A stretch of 64,000 bases of DNA, taken from the NCBI GenBank assembly GCA_963833985.1, contig CAWIAD010000001.1, positions 1,664,001-1,728,000 of the forward strand. The letters run 5' to 3'. Position numbers and translations under genes: made by a program. Each line of letters opens with the position of its first letter. Positions within the stretch are counted from its first letter, which is position 1. This document shows positions 53,038-64,000 of this stretch, one piece after another. This DNA is from an uncultured Planctomycetaceae bacterium (GTDB lineage: Bacteria; Planctomycetota; Planctomycetia; Isosphaerales; Isosphaeraceae). The notes beneath the pieces are model-generated. The model saw only the letters and a program-made list of their open reading frames with translations, was not told the DNA's origin and ran no database searches.

Positions 53038-53289
53038 TCCTGAACCCCTTGCGCGGAGGCCACAATGGCGACACGAGCCCATTCTAACCAACCTGGCCGC
53101 CCGGGCAAAGGCGGGGTGAGCGGCCATCCCTGCGTGCGCTTCTCCGGTGGGTCGCGCCGCCGGCCGCCAGCACAGCGCTCGTCCGAGATTGCGGACGAAC
53201 CGTCAGGGACCATCGTCACATCCCTGTCCTCTTTCAGTTTACGGCCCTATCGGCGGACGTCCCGGTTCCTAAATAGAAGCTTGGAAACG

Positions 53290-53352
53290 GGAAAGTGTGG
53301 CCCAGCCGCCCTCGGCTGGGAACGACAGCCGAGGGCGGCTGCCCCACTTTCC
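53290..53352. repeat. REP-like long inverted repeat
   Basis: Perfect 16-bp arms CAGCCGCCCTCGGCTG (53303-18) / CAGCCGAGGGCGGCTG (53326-41) plus outer GGAAAGTG/CACTTTCC. Confidence 0.85.
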
Positions 53353-53584
53353 AGGTGGTGTGGACCGATTTAGACGGCCAGGACTCCCCGCATCCCCGCG
53401 AACACGAGCGGGAGAGCCGGATCGGAACCAGAGCGGCTCGGGAATTCCTTTCACGAGCCATTGGACCCTCGGTCGGCACGACTTTAGAATAGTCCGCGGT
53501 AGCTTGCACTCATCATGGCGGCTCGGCTGGCTCAGGCTTCTCGTCAGGCCATTGAGAAGTGGCGTGGACCTCGGGTTCCAAGTA

Positions 53585-56426
53585 ATGACCCCCGAAGATC
53601 TCGCTCGAAAAAACATCGATCGCCAGCTCGCGCAGTGCGGCTGGCTCGTGCAGAATCGCGATGCGATGAACATCTCCGCTGCGCTTGGGGTGGCCGTGCG
53701 CGAGTTTGTCATGCGGACCGGCGAGGTCGATTATCTGCTGTACGCGGGCGGGAAGGCCGTCGGGGTCGTGGAGGCCAAGCCAGGGGGGCATACGCTCACC
53801 GGGGTGGAGGGGCAGTCGTCCAAGTACTCCGGCGCGCTGCCCTCTGGCGTGCCCAACTGGGGAGCGCCTCTGCCGTTCGCTTACGAGAGCACCGGCACCG
53901 TCACCCAGGTCACGAAGCTGCTGGAGCCCGACGCCCGCAGCCGGGAGGTCTTCACGTTCCACCGACCCGATGAGCTGCTCCGGCTGGTGAAGCTTGACGC
54001 CCAGGTGCGGGGCAGACTCAAGGCCCTGGCGCCGATCGACGCCGCGAATCTCTGGAACGTTCAGCGCCAGGCGATCGAGAACCTGGAGCAGTCGCTCGCC
54101 CGGAACCGCCCGCGCTCGCTCATCCAGATGGCCACCGGGTCGGGCAAGACCTTCACAGCCGTCAACACCGCCTACCGGCTCATCAAGTTCGGCGGGGCGA
54201 AGCGAGTGCTCTTCCTCGTCGATCGCAGCAACCTCGGGCGCCAGACCTACCGCGAATTCCAGCAATTCGTGAGCCCGGTGAACGCCTACAAGTTCACCGA
54301 CGAGTACCACGTTCAACTGCTGAACTCGAACACGATCGCCCCGACGAGCAAGGTCGTCATCACCACGATCCAGCGCCTTTACTCGACCCTCAAGGGCGAG
54401 GAGTCGTTCGACGAGGCCGCCGACGAGCAATCTCAATTCGAGCTCGCCACCAGCCTGGTCAAGGAACCGCTGCCGGTCGTCTACAACGAGCGAATCCCGA
54501 TCGAGACCTTTGATTTCGTCATCGTCGATGAGTGCCACCGCTCGATTTACAACCTCTGGCGCCAGGTGCTCGACTACTTCGACAGCTTCCTGATCGGCCT
54601 GACCGCCACGCCGACAAGGCAGACCATCGGCTACTTCAACAACAACCTCGTGATGGAATACGGCCACGAACAGGCCGTCGCGGACGGCGTGAACGTCGGC
54701 TTCGATGTCTACCGCATCCGCACCCAGATCACCGAGCAGGGGGCGACCCTTGAGAGCGAACCCGGAAAGTTCATCCCGCGCCGCGATCGACGCACCCGCG
54801 CGAAGCGTTACGCGGAGCTGGATGACGACTTGACCTACACGGCCGGCCAGCTCGACCGGGACGTGGTTGCCGAGGACCAGATCCGCCTCGTGGTTCGCAC
54901 GTTCAAGCAGCGCCTGTTTACCGAGATCTTTCCCGGCCGTACCGAGGTGCCGAAGACGCTCGTCTTCGCCAAGGATGACAGCCATGCCGACGACCTCACC
55001 CGCATCTTCCGGGAAGAGTTCGGCAAGGGGAACGAGTTCGTCCAGAAGATCACCTACCGCACCGGCTTCATTCCGGTCGAGCGCGAGGTCAAGAAGGCCG
55101 ACGGGACGACCGTGAAGGTGAAGGACTGGAAGAAGGTCTCCGACGCCAAGCCCGAGGAGATTCTCCAGGGGTTCCGGAACTCGTACAATCCCCGGATCGC
55201 CGTCACGGTGGATATGATCGCTACCGGCACGGACGTGAAGCCGCTGGAATGCCTGGTCTTCATGAGGAACATCAAGAGCGCTGCGTATTTCGAGCAGATG
55301 AAGGGCCGGGGCGTGCGGGTGGTCGACGTGAACTCGCTGCGGAGCGTCACGCCCGACTCGACCGCCAAGACGCACTTCGTCATCGTCGACGCGGTGGGCG
55401 TTTCCGAGCAGGGCAAGTCCGAGACGAAGCCGCTCGACCGCCAGCCTTCGGTGCCGCTCGACAAGGTTCTTGGCCTGGTTGCCTCGGGCGTCGCATCGCC
55501 CGAGGTCGTCTCGACCCTCGCCGCCCGGCTGACCCGCCTGGATCGCCAGTTGAACGACGGTGAACGCGAGCTGCTTGGTCAGCAGGCAGGCGGCCAGGCA
55601 CCGGCCCAGCTCGCCGCGAACCTGCTGCGCAGCCTTGACCCCGATGCCCAGGCGGCAAAGGCAAGCGAGGTCTTCGCGCTGGCCCCGGGTCAGGAGCCAA
55701 CCGAGGGGCAGCTCGACGACGTGCAGGAGACGATGACCGCCGAGGCGTTGAAGCCGTTCCACAACCCGAAGCTGCGCGAGCTGCTCCTCAACCTCAAGCG
55801 AAACCACGAGCAGGTCATCGACGAGATCTCGCAAGATGCGCTGCTCCAGGCAGGGTTTGATGCGGCCGCCCTGGAAAAAGCGCAGGCGCTCATCAAGAGC
55901 TTCAAGGACTTCATCGAGGGCCACAAGGACGAGCTTGAAGCCATCCAGATCCTCTACAGCCGCCCGCACCGCGAGGGTCTTCGGTTCCGCCACGTCAAGG
56001 ACCTTGCCGCGGCGCTCAAGAACCCACCCCTGGCGGCGACACCGGAGCGGGTCTGGCAAGCCTACGAGGCAACAGAGCCTCAGGCGGTGAAGGCGAAGGG
56101 CGGCAAAGACGTGGTGGACCTGATCGCCCTGGTGCGCCACGCCCTCGACCCGCAGGAGCCCCTTGTCCCCCTACTCCAGCACGGTGCAGGAGCGTTACGA
56201 TCAGTGGCTCGCCGAGCAGGCACGGAAGGGCACCGTCTTCACCGAAGAGCAGCGCCACTGGCTTGACGCCATCAAGGATCACATCGCCAAGAGCCTGCGC
56301 ATCGACGAGGACGATTTCGACGAGGTCCCCTTCAACACGATCGGCGGCCTGGGTCGGGTCCACGACCTTTTCGGGGAGCGCTTGCCGGTGATCCTTGACG
56401 AGCTGAATAGGAGGCTGGCGGCGTGA
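53585..56426 (+). CDS. hsdR: Type I restriction enzyme R subunit (EcoEI-type); frameshift near 56170
   Basis: DYLL..VEAK nuclease, MATGSGKT, DECHRS, GLTATP, TGTDV, QMKGRG; C-terminal FTEEQ..WL..IKDHI in the next frame after a C5 run. Confidence 0.92.
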
Positions 56427-58105
56427 ACGACGGGCCGGAGGAAGAGAAAAAACGGATGCAGGGCGAGAGCCAACCCGACTTGCCACCGCTTCCAAAGGGA
56501 TGGATCTGGGAGAGTCTCGAAACCATCTCACAAATCGACGGCGGCATTACAAAAGACCAGAAGCGCCGTTCGGCGGCTACAGCCAGGGAAGTTCCGTACC
56601 TCCGGGTGGCAAACGTGCAGCGCGGCTTCCTCGACCTGCGCGAGATCAAGACAATCGTGGCCGATGAGAAGGAGATTTAAACGCTCCGCCTCCGGTAAGG
56701 GGATGTCTTGTTCACTGAGGGGGGCGACCGAGACAAGTTGGGACGAGGGTGGGTCTGGAACGCGGAGATCAGCGAGTGCATACACCAAAATCACATTTTT
56801 CGTGCGCGTCCAGATGATAAGAGAATCGATCCGAGGTTTCTATCCTATCACGGCAATCACTTCGGACAGGTCTGGTTTACTCGAACCGGCAAGCAAACGA
56901 CGAACCTCGCATCAATTAACAAAAGTGTGTTACGTCGATTTCCAGTTCCCGTTCCCCCCTTGAACGAGCAGCGCCGCATCGACGCCAAGATCGAAGAGCT
57001 TTTCTCCGACCTCGATGCCGGGGTCGCCGCGCTGGAACGGGTGCGAGCGAACCTGAAGCGGTATCGAGCCGCCGTGCTCAAGGCAGCGGTGGAGGGCAAG
57101 CTCACCGAGGAATGGCGGGCGCAGCACCCCGACACCGAACCCGCCTCCGTCCTCCTCGACCGCATCCTCACCGAGCGCCGCCGCCAATGGGAGCAAGCCC
57201 AACTCGCCAAATTCGCCCACGCTGGCAAACAGCCCCCGAAGGGGTGGCAAGCGAAATATGAGGAACCGGACCCGCCGGATGCTCGTGGCCTTCCCTCGTT
57301 GCCAGGGGTATGGCGATGGATGAGGCTCGATTCGCTCGCCTCAATAGAGGGAGGGACCACGAAGGATCAAAAGCGGGCTCGCACTCCGACTACCTGAGAA
57401 GTGCCCTACCTGCGAGTCGCGAATGTCGAGCGTGGGCGATTGGAGCTTGGTGAGATCAAGACAATTCTTGCTGATCAGAAGGAGATTGAGGCTTTGCGAC
57501 TTATGAAGGGCGATGTCTTATTCACCGAAGGCGGAGACCGAGACAAACTTGGAAGAGGCTGGGTTTGGAACGAGGAAATCCCTGAGTGTATTCACCAGAA
57601 CCACGTCTTCAGGGCAAGGCTCATCGATGGGTCAGCAGAGCCGAAGCTCGTCTCTTATCACGGGAACTCTTTCGGACAGGAGTGGTTCACGAAAAACGGA
57701 AAACAAACGACCAACCTGGCCTCGATCAACAAGGGCATCTTGAGCCGTTTCCCCATCCCAGTTCCTCCAGCCCAGGAACAAGCACAGATCGTTGCCGAGG
57801 TTGAGCGCCGCTTATCAATCGTTGACAGGATCGAAGCCCAGGTGAACGCCAACTTGAAGCGTGCCGCTCGACTGCGCCAGGGCATCCTGAAACGAGCCTT
57901 CGAGGGCCGCCTTGTGCCGCAAGACCCGACCGACGAGCCCGCCGACAAGCTCCTGGAACGCATCCGTCAACAGAGACACACGCCGAAAGCTGCCACAAAG
58001 AGCCGCGCGGACTCACGTCGTCGGCGCTCGCCCGTCGATGTACAATCGGAGATGCCATTTTTCGACGAAGGAACTCGAGCCATCCGGAAAGGGGGAACAC
58101 CATGA
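56423..58105 (+). pseudogene. hsdS: Type I RM specificity subunit with three in-frame stops
   Basis: LPKGWIW, PPLNEQRRI, PPAQEQAQIV, LKRAFEGRLVPQDP; stops TAA 56678, TAA 56696 and TGA 57395 all lie in one continuous frame. Confidence 0.9.
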
Positions 58106-59052
58106 GCAATCGCATCGAGAAGGTTGTGCTCTCCAGCCCCCATCCGCATGGGGATCGACTGCCCCCCCACGCCGTGGGCCAGGCGCTGGTGTTGGTCCCT
58201 GAGCTAGTGCGGCAGTCGGTCGACATGGTGTTCCGGGGACAGAGCGCTCCCAGGGGCAGACGCCCCCACTGGCTCAAGGCTGCCGCGGATATCGCGCTCG
58301 TGGATGTGTCGGGAGGCGAGACCTCGGTCCTCACTTTCGAAGCCCCGACCTTGGGCGAGGCCGCGCCGGAGTTGTACTGGCAGGGGGAATTCCCGTGGAC
58401 CGACCAGCCGGATGCAGCGGACACCGGCTTCGACCTCCTCGGAGACGTTCTGACGGACGTAGCCCGCGAGAATGCCGAGAGCGATCGCTTCGATGCGCCG
58501 CTTTTGGAGAGACTGGGCGAGACGCGCAGGATTTTCAACGGTGCCTATTCCGAGCTCGCGATCATCAGCCACCGCCACGGAGTCGATGACCCCGCCTTGC
58601 TGAATCCCGCCAACCTCGAAATCGCCCGGCAGCTTCACGACCGCACGCCCCGCCCGCAGGCCGCCATCATCGTCGGCAAGCTCGACATGATGCGCCAGAG
58701 CACGCAGACGTTCGCGCTGATCATGGACGATGGTCAGGAAGTGCGTTGCGTGCTGCTGGATGACGATGTCGAGATGTTGAAGCCGCTATTCAATCAGCGC
58801 GTCGCCGTCTCAGGCCGCGTCGTTTTCCGCGTCTCGGGCCGAATCCTGCGGATGGAGGCGGAATCCGTTCGACTTGCCGTGCCTACAGACGCTTTCTTCG
58901 CCCGTCTGCCCCGCCCCAACGCCCAGAGATTCGACCTCCGGCGCATGGTCCGCGAACAAGGCTCCAAGCGCGGCCTCGCCGCGATCATGGGGAAGTGGCC
59001 GGGTGACGAGACCGACGAGGAGATCGACCAGTGGCTCCGGGAAATCAGTTGA
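58102..59052 (+). CDS. Uncharacterised 316-aa protein; probable OB-fold-like domain and antitoxin-like acidic C-terminus
   Basis: Intact ORF coupled to the hsdS stop; beta-rich IVGKLD..VRC..VAVSGRV region; tail GKWPGDETDEEIDQWL directly before the PIN gene. Confidence 0.75.
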   Translation: MSNRIEKVVLSSPHPHGDRLPPHAVGQALVLVPELVRQSVDMVFRGQSAPRGRRPHWLKAAADIALVDVSGGETSVLTFEAPTLGEAAPELYWQGEFPWTDQPDAADTGFDLLGDVLTDVARENAESDRFDAPLLERLGETRRIFNGAYSELAIISHRHGVDDPALLNPANLEIARQLHDRTPRPQAAIIVGKLDMMRQSTQTFALIMDDGQEVRCVLLDDDVEMLKPLFNQRVAVSGRVVFRVSGRILRMEAESVRLAVPTDAFFARLPRPNAQRFDLRRMVREQGSKRGLAAIMGKWPGDETDEEIDQWLREIS

Positions 59053-59062
59053 TGGCCGTCCC

Positions 59063-59497
59063 GTGACCTACCTTCTCGACACGAACATCATCATTCACCT
59101 GATACGTAAGTCGACCCTCGGGCTCGATGTCGATCGCGCTTACAGTCTCACGGCCTCGAGAACGAGAAACCTCATCAGCGTGGTCTCCGTGGGGGAACTG
59201 CTTTCGTTCGCCACGCGGCGGAACTGGGGAGCCGGGAAGATTTCAGCCCTGGAGGATGCCCTGGGGGAGCTTCTTTGGATTGACATCAACGACCGGGCCG
59301 TTCTTGAGTCCTATGCCCAGATCGAAGCGTTTACCCTGTCAAGCGGACGGAAGCTGGGGCAGAACGACCTATGGATCGCAGCATCCACGGCCGTCACTGG
59401 ATCGACCTTGTTGACGACCGACCGTGACTTCGACCACTTGAATGATTCGAAACTGCAACGAATCTGGATCGATCCGAACCAAGGCAAGACGCCATGA
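59063..59497 (+). CDS. PIN-domain (VapC-like) ribonuclease
   Basis: YLLDTNII, SVVSVGEL, NDLWIAA, LLTTDRDF: all four conserved acidic positions present. Confidence 0.92.
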   Translation: MTYLLDTNIIIHLIRKSTLGLDVDRAYSLTASRTRNLISVVSVGELLSFATRRNWGAGKISALEDALGELLWIDINDRAVLESYAQIEAFTLSSGRKLGQNDLWIAASTAVTGSTLLTTDRDFDHLNDSKLQRIWIDPNQGKTP

Positions 59498-59662
59498 GCA
59501 CCGACACCCAGCAAGTCGTCAGCAAAGTCTGGAACTTCGCCCACGTGCTCCGGGACGAGGGCTTGAGCGACATGGCCTACGTCGAGCAGATCACCTTTCT
59601 GCTGTTCCTCAAGATGGCGGACGAGCAGACGAAGCCGCCCTATCATCGCAAGCCGATCGTGC
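59494..59662 (+). pseudogene. hsdM: N-terminal stub of type I RM methyltransferase
   Basis: VVSKVWNFAHVLRDEGLS...YVEQITFLLFLKMADE is the EcoEI-type HsdM N-terminus; it breaks after about 56 codons. Confidence 0.88.
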
Positions 59663-59879
59663 TGCCCGGCTGCGCCAGGGCATCCTGAAACGGGACTTCG
59701 AGGGCCGCCTCGTGCCTCAAGACCCCACCGACGAGTCCGCCGATAAGCTCCTGGATCGCATCCAGCTCCGGGGAGCGGGAGCACTCCCTGTCACGATCGG
59801 TCGTCAGAAGCGATCGCGGAGCCCGTTGCGAAACAGTTCCAAGGGTCACGCACTCCGGCCTCGGGGTGAGGACAAATGA
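59658..59879 (+). pseudogene. hsdS: C-terminal remnant of a second hsdS
   Basis: RAARLRQGILKRDFEGRLVPQDPTDESADKLLDRI, a diverged copy of 57860-57965. Confidence 0.85.
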
Positions 59880-60118: not shown

Positions 60119-60272
60119 GTGTGCGTGAGCAGGCTAAGCGACGCGAAATCAGCGATTCCTGAGCAACATCGCTGAGGGTACCAACAAAATTCCCCTCGAA
60201 GAGCCTGGTCACTTGATCAAGCTTCCCGAGGGGTGTACTCCGTGGTTTACCACAACAGCGGAGTACTCGACC

Positions 60273-60857
60273 ATGTATCATGATTTACCCCGGACCGCCA
60301 GGCTCTGGTCGTTTCTTTGGGCTGTCGACCAGCATCTCGCAGAGGAAACCCGCAAGCAAGCATGTTCATGTGGCGGCCGCCTGCACGCCGCCAACTATCT
60401 CCGCAAGCCACGCGGCACTGCCGTCCAGCTACCCGAGCAAGAATGCCTCAGACTGAGCTTCTGCTGCGATCGCGAGGGCTGCAGGAAGAGAGTCACACCG
60501 CCGTCGGTGCGCTTCCTGGGCCGCAAGGTCTACCTGGGCGCGATCGTGATCCTCATCAGCGCCATGCGGCAGGGACCCTCGCCACGCCGCGTCCGCGAGC
60601 TTTCCACACGCTTCGGCGCCGACCGCCGGACCATCGCCCGCTGGCAGGTCTTCTGGCGCGAACGCTTTCCTCAGACACCATTCTGGAAGGTTGCAGGCGC
60701 CCGGTTGGTGCCGGTCCTGGAGATCCTCTCCCTTCCCTACTCACTTGTCGACGCCTTCCTCTCCCGCCATCGCATCTGCAAAGGGTGGACGCTCCTGCTG
60801 CGGTTTCTCGCACCGATCACGATCCCCGGCGGCCTGCGAATCGAGGTCTCGCGATGA
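60273..60857 (+). CDS. Transposon-associated Cys-rich (Zn-binding) / HTH-like protein
   Basis: CSCGGRLH..SFCCDREGCRKR; GADRRTIARW HTH-like segment; GGAG RBS. Confidence 0.75.
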   Translation: MYHDLPRTARLWSFLWAVDQHLAEETRKQACSCGGRLHAANYLRKPRGTAVQLPEQECLRLSFCCDREGCRKRVTPPSVRFLGRKVYLGAIVILISAMRQGPSPRRVRELSTRFGADRRTIARWQVFWRERFPQTPFWKVAGARLVPVLEILSLPYSLVDAFLSRHRICKGWTLLLRFLAPITIPGGLRIEVSR

Positions 60858-60953
60858 TCGCTTTCCACCCGCAGAAGATGCTCGTCGCCGATTTTGATCC
60901 GCCGATTTATAGAGGTTGTCACGGTCCCTTCACCCGACTTGTGAGGAGATGTG

Positions 60954-62427
60954 ATGACTCAAAGACACCCCTGTTCAACCGCTGCCTTGTGGGCACGGTT
61001 TCGGTTCTCCGTGGTGGGCTCGCTCCTGAGCTCTCCCCCTGCGCGGATCGCTTCAGACAGCGATCTGCTCCCTTGCCGAAAAGACCTGGTCGCATCCTGT
61101 GACGGGGCGCGATGTCCGCGTCGCGGCCGCCACCATCGCGCGCTGGTACTACACGGCGCTCCACCAGCCTGACGACCCGGTCGCCGCCTTGCGTCGTGCC
61201 GTGCGGAAAGACTGCGGAAAGATCTCGCTGGCGGCGACCCTCGCCGAGCGACTCCATCTCCAGTATCGCGATCACACGGACTGGAGCTATCAACTGCACT
61301 ACGACAACCTCGCCGCGCTCTTGAAGGCCGATCCCTCACTGGGGCGGCTCCCCTCCTATTCCACGATCAAGCGTTTCATGCAGGCTCACGGCCTGGTGCG
61401 CAGACCGAGGCTCCGGCCCGGCGGACGCCCTGGCGAAGTCCGCGCCCAAGAGAGGCGTCAGACACGGGAAATCCGCAGCTACGAAGCCACCCATGTCGGA
61501 GCGCTCTGGCATCTCGATTTCCACCACGGATCGCTCAAGGTGCTCACTCCCGGCGGCCAGTGGCTGCGGCCAATCGCGCTGGGCATCCTCGATGACCACT
61601 CACGACTGTGCTGCCACGTTCAGTGGTATCTCTCGGAGACCGCCGAGGACCTGGTGCACGGACTCTCCCAGGCGATCCAGAAACGGGGCCTGCCGCGTGC
61701 GCTGTTGACCGATAACGGCTCCGCGATGGTGGCCGAGGAAGTCACCGAAGGGCTCTTGCGTCTGGGCATCGTCGCAGAGCGAACGCTCCCTTATAGCCCG
61801 TATCAAAACGGCAAGCAGGAGGCGTTCTGGGGCACGCTCGAGGGGCGGCTCATGAAGATGCTCGATGGTGTCAGGGAATTGACCCTGGAATTGCTCAATG
61901 AGGCAACCCAGGCCTGGATGGAAATTGAGTACAACCGCGCCGTGCACCGCGAGACCGGCAGCTCGCCGGTCGACCGCTTCGCCAAGGCCCCCGATGTGCT
62001 TCGCTCGAGCCCTTCGAGTGTAGCGCTGCGTGCGGCATTCCGCCTGGAGACCAAGAGGAGCCAGCGTCAAAGCGACGGCACCATCTCACTGGAGGGGAGG
62101 CGCTTCGAGATTCCGGCAAGGTACCGTCACTTCCGCGCAGTGACCGTCCGTTACGCCCGCTGGGACCTCGGCCGGATCGATCTGGTCGACGAGCAAAGTG
62201 GAACCGTCCTGGCTCCCATTTATCCCCTCGACAAAGCCGCCAACGCCGACGGCCGCCGGGCCGTAACCGGGTCCGGTGGCACCGAGGTGCCGTCCCCAGA
62301 GCAGCGGCGCGACGCCGGCGAACTGCCACCCCTCCTGAAAAGGATCCTCCAGGAGTACTCGGCCACGGGCATGCCGCCGGCCTATTTGCCCAGGACATCC
62401 CCGAAAGACAACGGAGAACCCTCATGA
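60954..62427 (+). CDS. DDE transposase/integrase (rve core, Mu/TnsB-like C-terminus); frameshift near 61045
   Basis: WHLDFHH, ILDDHSR, LTDNGS, PYQNGKQE, EYNRAVH, DGTISLEG; N-terminus WARFRFSVVGSLL in the adjacent frame. Confidence 0.9.
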
Positions 62428-63269
62428 ATAGCAAGAAACTGCTGGCACTCTATGGGCTGAAATGGAACCCGTTTTCACCCGAGCTTCCTCCCGAAGCACT
62501 GCTGGCGCCCCCCAGGATCGAGCAATTTGCCTGGCGCGTGGAACAGCTGGTCCAGGAAGGAGGCTTCGCGCTGATCACGGGTGAGTCGGGCACCGGCAAA
62601 TCGGTGGCGCTGCGGATTGTGGCCGGGCGGCTGGCGGCGCTGCGGGATGTCACCGTCGGTGTGATCGAGCGACCCCAGTCGAAGAGCCCCGACTTCTATC
62701 GGGAGCTGGGGGACATCTTCGCGGTGAAGCTGGCACCGCACAATCGCTGGTGCGGGTTCAAGGCGCTCCGCGAGCGGTGGAAAGCCCACGTGGCCTCCTC
62801 GCGGATCCGCCCGGTGCTGCTGATCGACGAAGCCCAGGAGATGAGCCCTGAGGTCCTCTGCGAGCTGCGTATTCTCTCCAGCGCCGACTTCGATGCCACG
62901 TCGCTTTTGACCGTGATCCTCTCGGGAGATGAACGACTGCTGGAACTGTTGCGGCACGAAGATCTGGTGCCCCTGGGCACCCGGATTCGCACGCGACTGG
63001 TCACCGAGCCCGCCACCCGCGAAGAGCTCCTGGAGTTGCTTCAACACGCGCTGGCCAAGGCCGGCAATGCCGCGCTCATGACGCCCCAGCTCGCAGAGAC
63101 ACTGGTCGACCACAGCGCGGGGAACTACCGTTTGCTCATGATTATGGGAGGTGAGCTCTTGGCCCATGGCATGGCGCACGAAATCGGGCAGCTTGACGAG
63201 AAGTGCTACCTCGAGGTCTATCAGCCGCGAGGCCCGCGCCCCGCGCTGAAGAAGAAAGCGAAGGTGTGA
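62424..63269 (+). CDS. ExeA-family AAA+ ATPase (transposition helper)
   Basis: YGLKWNPF, GESGTGKS, LIDEAQ; ATGA overlap with the transposase. Confidence 0.9.
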   Translation: MNSKKLLALYGLKWNPFSPELPPEALLAPPRIEQFAWRVEQLVQEGGFALITGESGTGKSVALRIVAGRLAALRDVTVGVIERPQSKSPDFYRELGDIFAVKLAPHNRWCGFKALRERWKAHVASSRIRPVLLIDEAQEMSPEVLCELRILSSADFDATSLLTVILSGDERLLELLRHEDLVPLGTRIRTRLVTEPATREELLELLQHALAKAGNAALMTPQLAETLVDHSAGNYRLLMIMGGELLAHGMAHEIGQLDEKCYLEVYQPRGPRPALKKKAKV

Positions 63270-63271
63270 CG

Positions 63272-64000
63272 ATGGCGACCAGTGGCGAGCAAGTGCTTCC
63301 GGTGGTGCGTGTGGCCGAGCTTCCCAGCGATGAGCTCGCGGAGCGATGGCTGGTGGAGCAGCTCTGGTGTGCCCACGCGGTGGGCGTCATCGGCGGCGCT
63401 CCGAAGTGCGCCAAGACGTGGCTGGGGCTGGACATGGCCCTCTCCGTAGCCACGGGCACACCATGCCTGGGCAAGTATGCCGTACCGGAGCCGGGACCGG
63501 TTCTGGTTTACCTGGCTGAGGATGCGCTGCGGGCTGTGCGCGAACGTATCGAGGGAATGGCCCGGCATCGCGGTCTGGATCTCGACGAGGTGTCGATCCA
63601 CGTGATCACGGTCCCGGTGCTCCGGCTCGATCACGATCGAGACCGCACGCGGCTGTGGGAGACAGTGCGGGGGCTTCGGCCTCGGCTGCTGGTGCTGGAT
63701 CCCCTGGTGCGACTTCACGGCATCGACGAGAATCATGCTGGCGACGTCGCCGAATTACTCGGGTATCTGCGGTCGTTGCAGCGTCAGCTTGGCCTGGCGG
63801 TTCTGCTGGTGCATCACACGCGGAAGAACGCCGCGGACGGTGTTGCCGCCGGTCAGGGCCTGCGTGGGTCGGGTGACATACATGCCTTCGGCGACTCGAA
63901 CCTGTATCTCCAGCGCACGAAGGAGCACCTGATCCTCTCCAGCGAGCACCGGTCGGCGCCGGCAGTAGCGCCTGTTTATCTGGAGCTGGTCGCCACCGAC
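63272..64000 (+). CDS. AAA_25 / RepA-like RecA-fold ATPase (partial; not in ORF track)
   Basis: Manual translation: WLVEQLW, GGAPKCAKT, VYLAED, LVLDPL..DEN, LVHHTRK, LRGSG; open to the window end. Confidence 0.85.
   Translation, partial: MATSGEQVLPVVRVAELPSDELAERWLVEQLWCAHAVGVIGGAPKCAKTWLGLDMALSVATGTPCLGKYAVPEPGPVLVYLAEDALRAVRERIEGMARHRGLDLDEVSIHVITVPVLRLDHDRDRTRLWETVRGLRPRLLVLDPLVRLHGIDENHAGDVAELLGYLRSLQRQLGLAVLLVHHTRKNAADGVAAGQGLRGSGDIHAFGDSNLYLQRTKEHLILSSEHRSAPAVAPVYLELVATD

Follow-up and report, generated by a model that had tools for sequence, protein, structure and literature searches.

VapC toxins cleave tRNA or rRNA, and the tails of VapB antitoxins cover the active site of their toxins. 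In a 64,000-nucleotide stretch of DNA from an uncultured Planctomycetaceae bacterium (contig CAWIAD010000001.1, positions 1,664,001 to 1,728,000; hereafter the window, in whose own numbering positions are given), we analysed a two-gene module that pairs a VapC-like PIN nuclease with a 316-residue partner protein inside a type I restriction–modification (RM) locus. Several described systems offer comparisons, cited here from parts of each source. In Panacea toxin–antitoxin (TA) systems, one scaffold (PanA) occurs with different toxins, an appended domain neutralises, and the scaffold has been proposed to act as a sensor (PMC10440598). PD-T4-10 is a validated anti-T4 TA system in which PD-T4-10B is the toxic component (PMC9519451). 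The phage neutralisers AdfN/DarG-like, ICP1 Gp145 and T4 TifA are whole, dedicated proteins directed against DarT or ToxN (PMC13728456; see also PMC11825919). PrrC and HEC-03 use an ABC ATPase, HEC-03B being a PIN protein and PrrC occurring almost only embedded in RM loci (bioRxiv 10.1101/2024.01.29.577857), and DS-3 and DS-5 are PIN defence systems with other partners, of which DS-5 is a two-gene system and not a TA pair (PMC13092281).

In the reading that we favour, with a probability of roughly 0.6, the pair is a mobile module in which the tail of the partner holds the PIN inactive, infection frees the PIN, and phages counter with copies of the tail. The new element is that the tail motif occurs alone in 17 viral contigs, in 10 unrelated protein families. 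The first-pass annotation of this DNA named a match to an already described system as evidence against its reading, and no exact match was found; the literature, with subscription papers mostly outside its scope, gave no account of the pair, of PDC-M32 function or of phage peptides that act as PIN antitoxins. This cassette may be among the 3,568 in the supplement of the embedding study cited above (bioRxiv 2024.01.29.577857), which lay outside that scope.

The large partner is linked to its own PIN subfamily

The partner gene (58102..59052, plus strand) is an open frame, followed on the same strand by the PIN gene (59063..59497; 144 residues from a GTG). The partner had no match in Pfam, NCBIfam, PADLOC or PHROGs, a PDB sequence search with it returned only matches at E ≥ 0.35, and none of the AbrB-, RHH-, HTH- or Phd-type Pfam families was found in it or in 73 family members. 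The nuclease matched PF01850 above the cut-off (E = 6.8e-13), retained every catalytic acid (D6, E45, D102 and D120), as first annotated, and showed no departures at 26 conserved columns; it scored far under the cut-off of all NCBIfam VapC models, and the PIN proteins, which form a subfamily of their own, had no match in PADLOC. Decay of the partner gene was ruled out, with 5 departures at 85 conserved columns where homologues range from 0 to 15.

Searches recovered 267 partner homologues among 5188 candidates, nearly all of about 315 residues; grouping at 50% identity (E ≤ 0.001) gave 1261 clusters, some of them of fragments or tail-only matches. A genome-collection scan with the 316-residue protein alone gave a single locus, and the family had no match among plasmids. 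Named homologues are mostly from planctomycetes, to which Atlas clusters add Actinomycetota and Myxococcota. Our locus set comprised 93 loci, or 81 clusters at 90% DNA identity. The PIN gene came directly after the partner in 87 of the 90 loci with sequence there (a count that omits the tail-only loci L109 and L110 and the short duplicates L002–L016), the other three being truncated or rearranged, and in most loci its start lay at −4 to +7. A sample of 401 genomes gave the same picture: full-length partner and PIN subfamily occurred, adjacent to one another, in the same 13 genomes, with the subfamily at E ≤ 2.2e-37 and the next PIN match at 3.5e-19, and 10 of these 13 PINs were already in the search profile. 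The expected neighbourhood linkage was thus borne out, and hsd and defence settings were enriched.

The PIN was broken in 10 of 72 evaluable loci (the count leaves out 14 loci of insufficient length and 7 in which the partner was truncated or shifted), as would be expected if the toxin is lost first; a search that starts from the partner biases this count. Upstream of 33 loci lacking hsd genes, an operator search detected no k-mer excess, and inverted repeats numbered 7 of 33 compared with 7.6 in shuffled sequence. The lack of an operator-like repeat fits, weakly, a role other than autoregulation for the N-terminal and OB portions of the partner described below.

A predicted complex places the partner tail over the PIN active site

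AlphaFold2 modelling of the partner (mean predicted local distance difference test score, pLDDT, 87) yielded two ordered domains and a low-confidence tail. The first, an alpha/beta N-domain (residues 1–183; 58102..58650, plus strand; pLDDT 94.6 when folded alone), had no Foldseek match at E ≤ 0.001 and, in structure alignment, only weak ferredoxin-like rows (best VIA Z 4.7, root-mean-square deviation (rmsd) 3.6, 94 aligned); it is without a clear solved relative, which proves neither a new fold nor its absence. The second is an RPA/SSB/PriB-like OB fold (residues 184–262; 58651..58887, plus strand), in keeping with the OB-like part noticed at first pass. It aligned with 8aaj_C (VIA Z 8.8, rmsd 2.9, 71 aligned), SSB and PriB rows tied with this match, and Foldseek returned RPA14 and LysRS. 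We refer to these two domains together as N+OB. Relative to the closest locus (L017), the ratio of non-synonymous to synonymous substitution (dN/dS) was 0.12–0.20 across partner regions, 0.12–0.19 for the N+OB scaffold of about 260 residues and 0.14 for the PIN, all under purifying selection.

The tail (residues 289–316; 58966..59049, plus strand), a G-x-WPGDETDEEI helix, is the most conserved region of the partner and its predicted PIN-binding element. When partner residues 258–316 were co-folded with the PIN, the complex scored 0.85 compared with 0.01 for the best control, a mark reached by 116 of 157 solved pairs and 2 of 215 mismatched pairs. Runs shared at least 92% of contacts, with partner pLDDT of at least 73. 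The predicted interface joins PIN residues 7–8, 45, 101, 119–120 and 122 to partner residues 289–301, 303, 305 and 308–312, with W299 and its neighbours as the core contact, an arrangement that would place the tail over the active site. As a prediction, this model is in line with the earlier proposal that the acidic tail would neutralise the PIN.

The tail motif occurs alone in small bacterial proteins and in viral proteins

Searching IMG/VR with the family profile gave 10 loci, every one matching residues 258–316 only. The exact tail pattern had 8 matches in viral contigs and none for a permuted control; a relaxed pattern was found in 17 viral contigs against one control match, which lacked the flanking residues. 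Beyond the searched pattern, the viral proteins shared G at −2 (17/17), I, L or V at −4 (16/17) and a hydrophobic residue at +13 (17/17), positions that correspond to residues within the predicted interface. They represent 12 distinct carriers of 50–360 residues, in 10 families unrelated outside the motif, which sits near the N-terminus, internally or at the C-terminus; a protein search added two more unrelated carriers. At 10 of the 12 viral loci, PHROG neighbours from phage replication or packaging, such as terminase, helicase DnaB, recombinase Erf, RusA and Gam were present. The fetched flanks of 2.5–5 kb contained no PIN of the subfamily (best E = 6.8) and no N+OB, and a search for the tail in 50,697 GenBank phage records gave just two matches at E = 8 and no cultured-phage carrier.

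On sequence grounds, the viral motif is likely a stolen antidote, and its presence alone in unrelated phage proteins, the strongest circumstantial sign of an anti-phage role, suggests that the module fights phages. The best candidate for a dedicated mimic, judged from its sequence, is a 50-residue protein on a 193-kb viral contig (L114:3928-5111) that contains little beyond the tail motif; its gene follows AIR carboxylase (purE) and lies near ribonucleotide reductase.

In bacteria, the tail also ends proteins of 66–78 residues, one of which has a DUF2281-like start. Two such tail-only proteins found in genomes, each of 71 residues, lie inside hsd loci: G275 (L015:874-1650) and G073 (L016:1405-1620). 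In L015 the tail-only gene is preceded by a gene for a 162-residue protein that is PIN-like by eye and has no Pfam match.

The N+OB scaffold has kin with other tails and partners

In a profile-to-profile comparison, N+OB matched the C-terminal portion of the DUF6575 proteins (hhalign 96%, E = 2.7e-9, 245 columns), a likeness also indicated by a BFVD match (E = 1.9e-7) and an Atlas lead (0.78); hhalign of the shallow profile against single DUF6575 proteins failed, success being confined to profile against profile. The PADLOC candidate PDC-M32A was matched weakly by 26 of 115 members through their N+OB part only (best E = 1.9e-6). The window protein had no match to it at E ≤ 0.1, and hhalign to one PDC-M32A was insignificant (E = 0.063), whereas L153 bridges the N+OB family to PDC-M32A at E = 2.7e-51. 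This bridging locus (L153:1486-2813) encodes N+OB (hhalign 93%) with a DHYLYG-type tail, followed by a different PF01850 PIN, and two others, L189:527-1908 (96%) and L180:353-1914 (87%), carry N+OB with a third tail and then a third PIN group; these two further N+OB–PIN pairings appear to be uncatalogued. L150:1498-2993 and L149:1042-2589 are more members of the N+OB network with other tails and partners. The scaffold is thus reused with other tails and partners, namely two other PIN types, PDC-M32A and the DUF6575 proteins.

RM operons are a favoured setting and not a required one

An hsd gene of a type I RM system was present in 29 of 81 clusters, and hsdM directly followed the PIN in 21 of 60 evaluable clusters; even a Spirochaetales genome has the pair flanked by hsdS and hsdM. 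Among the 13 loci from the 401 genomes, 4 had an hsd gene in their flanks and 9 had none. Others are set in BREX, between an Eco57I/MmeI-type methylase and pglZ; in further defence settings the pair follows an Eco57I-like enzyme, has RhuM, Mrr, a PD-T4-4A-like ATPase or a DRT reverse transcriptase as neighbours, or accompanies HEC-05 or HEC-08. Many copies stand between housekeeping genes with 70–700 nt of upstream space, some of them divergent. The hsdS–hsdM gap, for its part, holds unrelated cargos in various loci (HEPN, GmrSD, DUF5131, AlbA, DUF3800 and dCTP deaminase). With RM-embedded loci occurring alongside many standalone ones, the module is a self-contained, mobile unit that prefers RM operons as places of insertion and can do without them. 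At one locus only (L082:8419-10974), the module adjoins a Pnkp-type RNA repair gene, which is of interest near an RNase toxin.

The window copy sits in a dead RM locus and is probably weakened

The first-pass annotation described an intact pair, joined by ATGA overlaps to destroyed hsdS and hsdM genes. The overlaps are as described, the hsdS stop at 58102–58105 and the hsdM start at 59494–59497, and the partner gene is indeed open. The PIN gene is less clearly intact: the ATG that overlaps the partner stop (59052) is out of frame with the PIN and opens a frame of only 4 codons (59052..59066, plus strand). Of 28 homologous loci that have an ATG there, 27 read from it into the PIN frame, and the closest locus, L017, has one extra base in the 59052–59066 junction stretch. 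A 151-nt contig of sequencing run X1 equals 58914–59064 with zero differences or gaps, a weak hint against an assembly error; the contig reaches 2 bases beyond the site, and the same sample may be its source. The displaced start implies that this copy may be crippled; the stop of the short frame overlaps the GTG of the PIN frame and could permit a restart, the one route to protein still available, making the toxin here doubtful and not dead. Judged from the sequence, we consider the window copy probably weakened at the PIN start. The suggestion that addiction kept the pair intact while the RM genes decayed is weakened by this start, and by the DUF3800 cargo of the same locus, which is an open frame too.

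The destruction of the flanking genes likewise stands in part. The hsdS gene (56423..58105, plus strand) is a pseudogene with in-frame stops at 56678, 56696 and 57395, and the EcoAI/EcoEI-like hsdR before it (about 53585..56426, plus strand) has a frameshift near 56170; three DNA sequencing runs covered only scraps of the region, with no hsdS stop among them. The destruction of hsdM, by contrast, is not borne out. The 59-codon hsdM 5' piece (59494..59670, plus strand; HsdM_N match), 88% like a full hsdM at C1:1729249, forms the left side of a cassette junction at about 59671, where it is fused to the 3' end of a second hsdS (59671..59879, plus strand), the right side, which is 90% like 57860–57965 and constitutes a 106-nt direct repeat. 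A full-length hsdM, carrying a single TAG at codon 121 of 496, is found outside the window, some 5.7 kb farther along. Past the window there are also the IS-interrupted dCTP deaminase, a third 3' end of hsdS, the DUF3800 gene and a third 5' end of hsdM. The locus is a dead RM system carrying three stacked cargo cassettes, each with an hsdS 3' end, cargo and an hsdM 5' end: the partner and PIN; a dCTP deaminase with a 98-residue gene; and DUF3800 (59494–59879; L111:2250-7460 = C1:1729249-1734460).

A multi-copy transposon with an rve integrase and an AAA ATPase (60119..64000, plus strand) interrupts the dCTP deaminase cargo on the minus strand; it has five more near-identical copies in the genome, two of which are interrupted themselves. 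A second insertion sequence (L111:3886-6128), which we take to be IS1634-like, encodes a 580-residue transposase, is flanked by a 6-bp target duplication (TTTCGT) and interrupts the first codons of a gene after hsdM. Two of the hsdS 3' fragments share their first base (TGCGCCAGG) although what they are joined to differs (hsdM in one case, the beginning of a different gene in the other), a hint of a hot spot where recombination exchanges cargo; L028 and L109 likewise contain an additional hsdS 3' piece. Just upstream of hsdR, a short repeat (53260–53378) with a 22-nt inverted-repeat core has dozens of genome copies at 74–97% identity.

Proposed mechanism and alternatives

We propose that the partner would keep the VapC-like PIN ribonuclease inactive by laying its C-terminal WPGDETDEEI tail over the active site. 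Infection would be sensed through N+OB, which may bind single-stranded nucleic acid or a phage protein, or would cause loss of the partner; the freed PIN would then cut tRNA or rRNA and abort the infection, and phages would answer with grafted copies of the tail acting as decoy antitoxins. In this scheme we infer that the PIN is toxic, that the module defends against phages and that the viral motif mimics its tail. A broader version is tentative, with odds somewhat short of even: N+OB may be an undescribed antitoxin scaffold, promiscuous and infection-sensing, that equips several families of toxins, and phages may defeat its PIN version with a portable peptide of about 25 residues that became attached to unrelated accessory proteins on many independent occasions.

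Several points weigh against the proposed anti-phage role. About two-thirds of loci are without hsd genes, many of them amid housekeeping genes like ordinary TA pairs, and the hsd-adjacency figures are raw counts, not set against a baseline frequency of ordinary TA pairs next to hsd. The complex score may stem from likeness to solved VapBC structures, and an OB fold by itself shows no function. Because the tail-only bacterial proteins G275 and G073 exist, the phage peptides may be directed at different PIN toxins. The viral contigs have no host assignment, so that a meeting of these phages with the module is presumed, and the viral PIN check spans the fetched 2.5–5 kb flanks only. Since PD-T4-10B, to which DUF6575 is weakly linked, is the toxic component, the scaffold could do more than sense passively.

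The strongest competitor, which we nevertheless consider unlikely, holds that the pair is an ordinary selfish or stress-related type II TA system, VapBC-like with an outsized antitoxin, and that RM operons are neutral insertion sites; in phages the tail would then serve only to keep host translation going once host shut-off has released the toxin, or would have been captured neutrally. The many housekeeping contexts with ample upstream space and sometimes divergent orientation would suit such a system, as would its patchy spread (13 of 401 genomes) and the broken PIN genes. Addiction, however, needs no 260-residue scaffold maintained by purifying selection, the 33 loci searched have no common upstream operator, the kin of the scaffold are defence candidates, and the predicted interface is retained by 10 unrelated families of viral carriers.

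We regard as improbable a two-component nuclease in which N+OB takes an active part, as cofactor or effector, by bringing nucleic acid to a docked PIN, the tail serving as a docking strap and not an inhibitor, with phage peptides displacing the partner. Precedents exist in the toxic, DUF6575-linked PD-T4-10B (in the consulted parts of PMC9519451) and in DS-5, described in part of PMC13092281 as a two-gene PIN defence that is not a TA, and the OB fold resembles ssDNA-binding proteins. The predicted interface nevertheless covers catalytic-site residues (7–8, 45, 101, 120 and 122), tail-only small proteins exist, one of them DUF2281-like, and the coupled gene order is antitoxin first. Least probable of all is the dedicated, PrrC-like guard of type I RM suggested at first pass, in which the partner would bind the RM complex and free the PIN upon phage inhibition: translational coupling to both hsd genes in the window and the hsdS–pair–hsdM order, shared with the Spirochaetales genome, speak for it, but hsdM is absent from that place in 39 of 60 evaluable clusters, most genome loci have no flanking hsd gene, many copies sit amid housekeeping genes and the hsdS–hsdM gap hosts many unrelated cargos.

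Should the proposed release of the PIN by infection and its countering by tail copies prove true, a large uncatalogued TA scaffold (more than 1000 clusters at 50% identity, fragments included) would be added that joins systems of the PIN, PDC-M32 and DUF6575 types, and the question whether VapC-type toxins serve phage defence would become open to direct test. Counter-defence would here act through a short linear motif instead of a dedicated gene, an anti-defence form missed by gene-level searches, with the antitoxin motif hidden in hypervariable phage proteins. Scanning phage proteomes for antitoxin tails could then flag TA families that are truly anti-phage.

Comparison with known systems

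Among described systems, PrrC and HEC-03 share with the module a nuclease inside RM or other defence operons; no ATPase family match was found here, and hsdM follows the PIN in only about a third of evaluable clusters (21/60). PDC-M32, an untested PADLOC defence candidate, shares the N+OB part and the two-gene, large-then-small layout, but PDC-M32A ends in another domain of about 115 residues, PDC-M32B is not a PIN, and the window proteins match neither model. DUF6575 proteins carry the N+OB module behind their DUF6575 domain, whereas neither the window protein nor the 73 members matched PF20215, and PD-T4-10 has no PIN, its B component being toxic. The connection of DUF6575 to PD-T4-10B is one weak PADLOC match (E = 8e-4), and DUF6575 was absent from two supplementary files of PMC9519451. 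Like the phage antitoxin mimics, the viral carriers described here would be phage-borne neutralisers of a TA-type defence; they appear to differ in that their motif of about 25 residues sits grafted in otherwise unrelated proteins, and a PIN RNase would be its target.

Panacea systems resemble the module in the modular reuse of a scaffold with swapped tails and toxins. The fold differs, however: Pfam scans of the window protein and of family members gave no DUF4065 match, and an OB fold, present here, is not mentioned in the consulted parts of PMC10440598. With VapBC the module has in common a coupled operon with the antitoxin first, a PIN toxin with four acidic residues and an acidic C-terminal partner segment that is predicted to lie over the active site. 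It differs in its 316-residue partner built of an N-domain and an OB fold, in place of a short AbrB, RHH, HTH or Phd antitoxin, in a PIN that falls under every NCBIfam VapC cut-off and in having no common upstream palindrome. Together, these comparisons set the module apart from canonical VapB, Panacea, PDC-M32, PD-T4-10 and PrrC/HEC-03, whose tested features it fails to show, and place it as akin to the VapBC and Panacea TAs.

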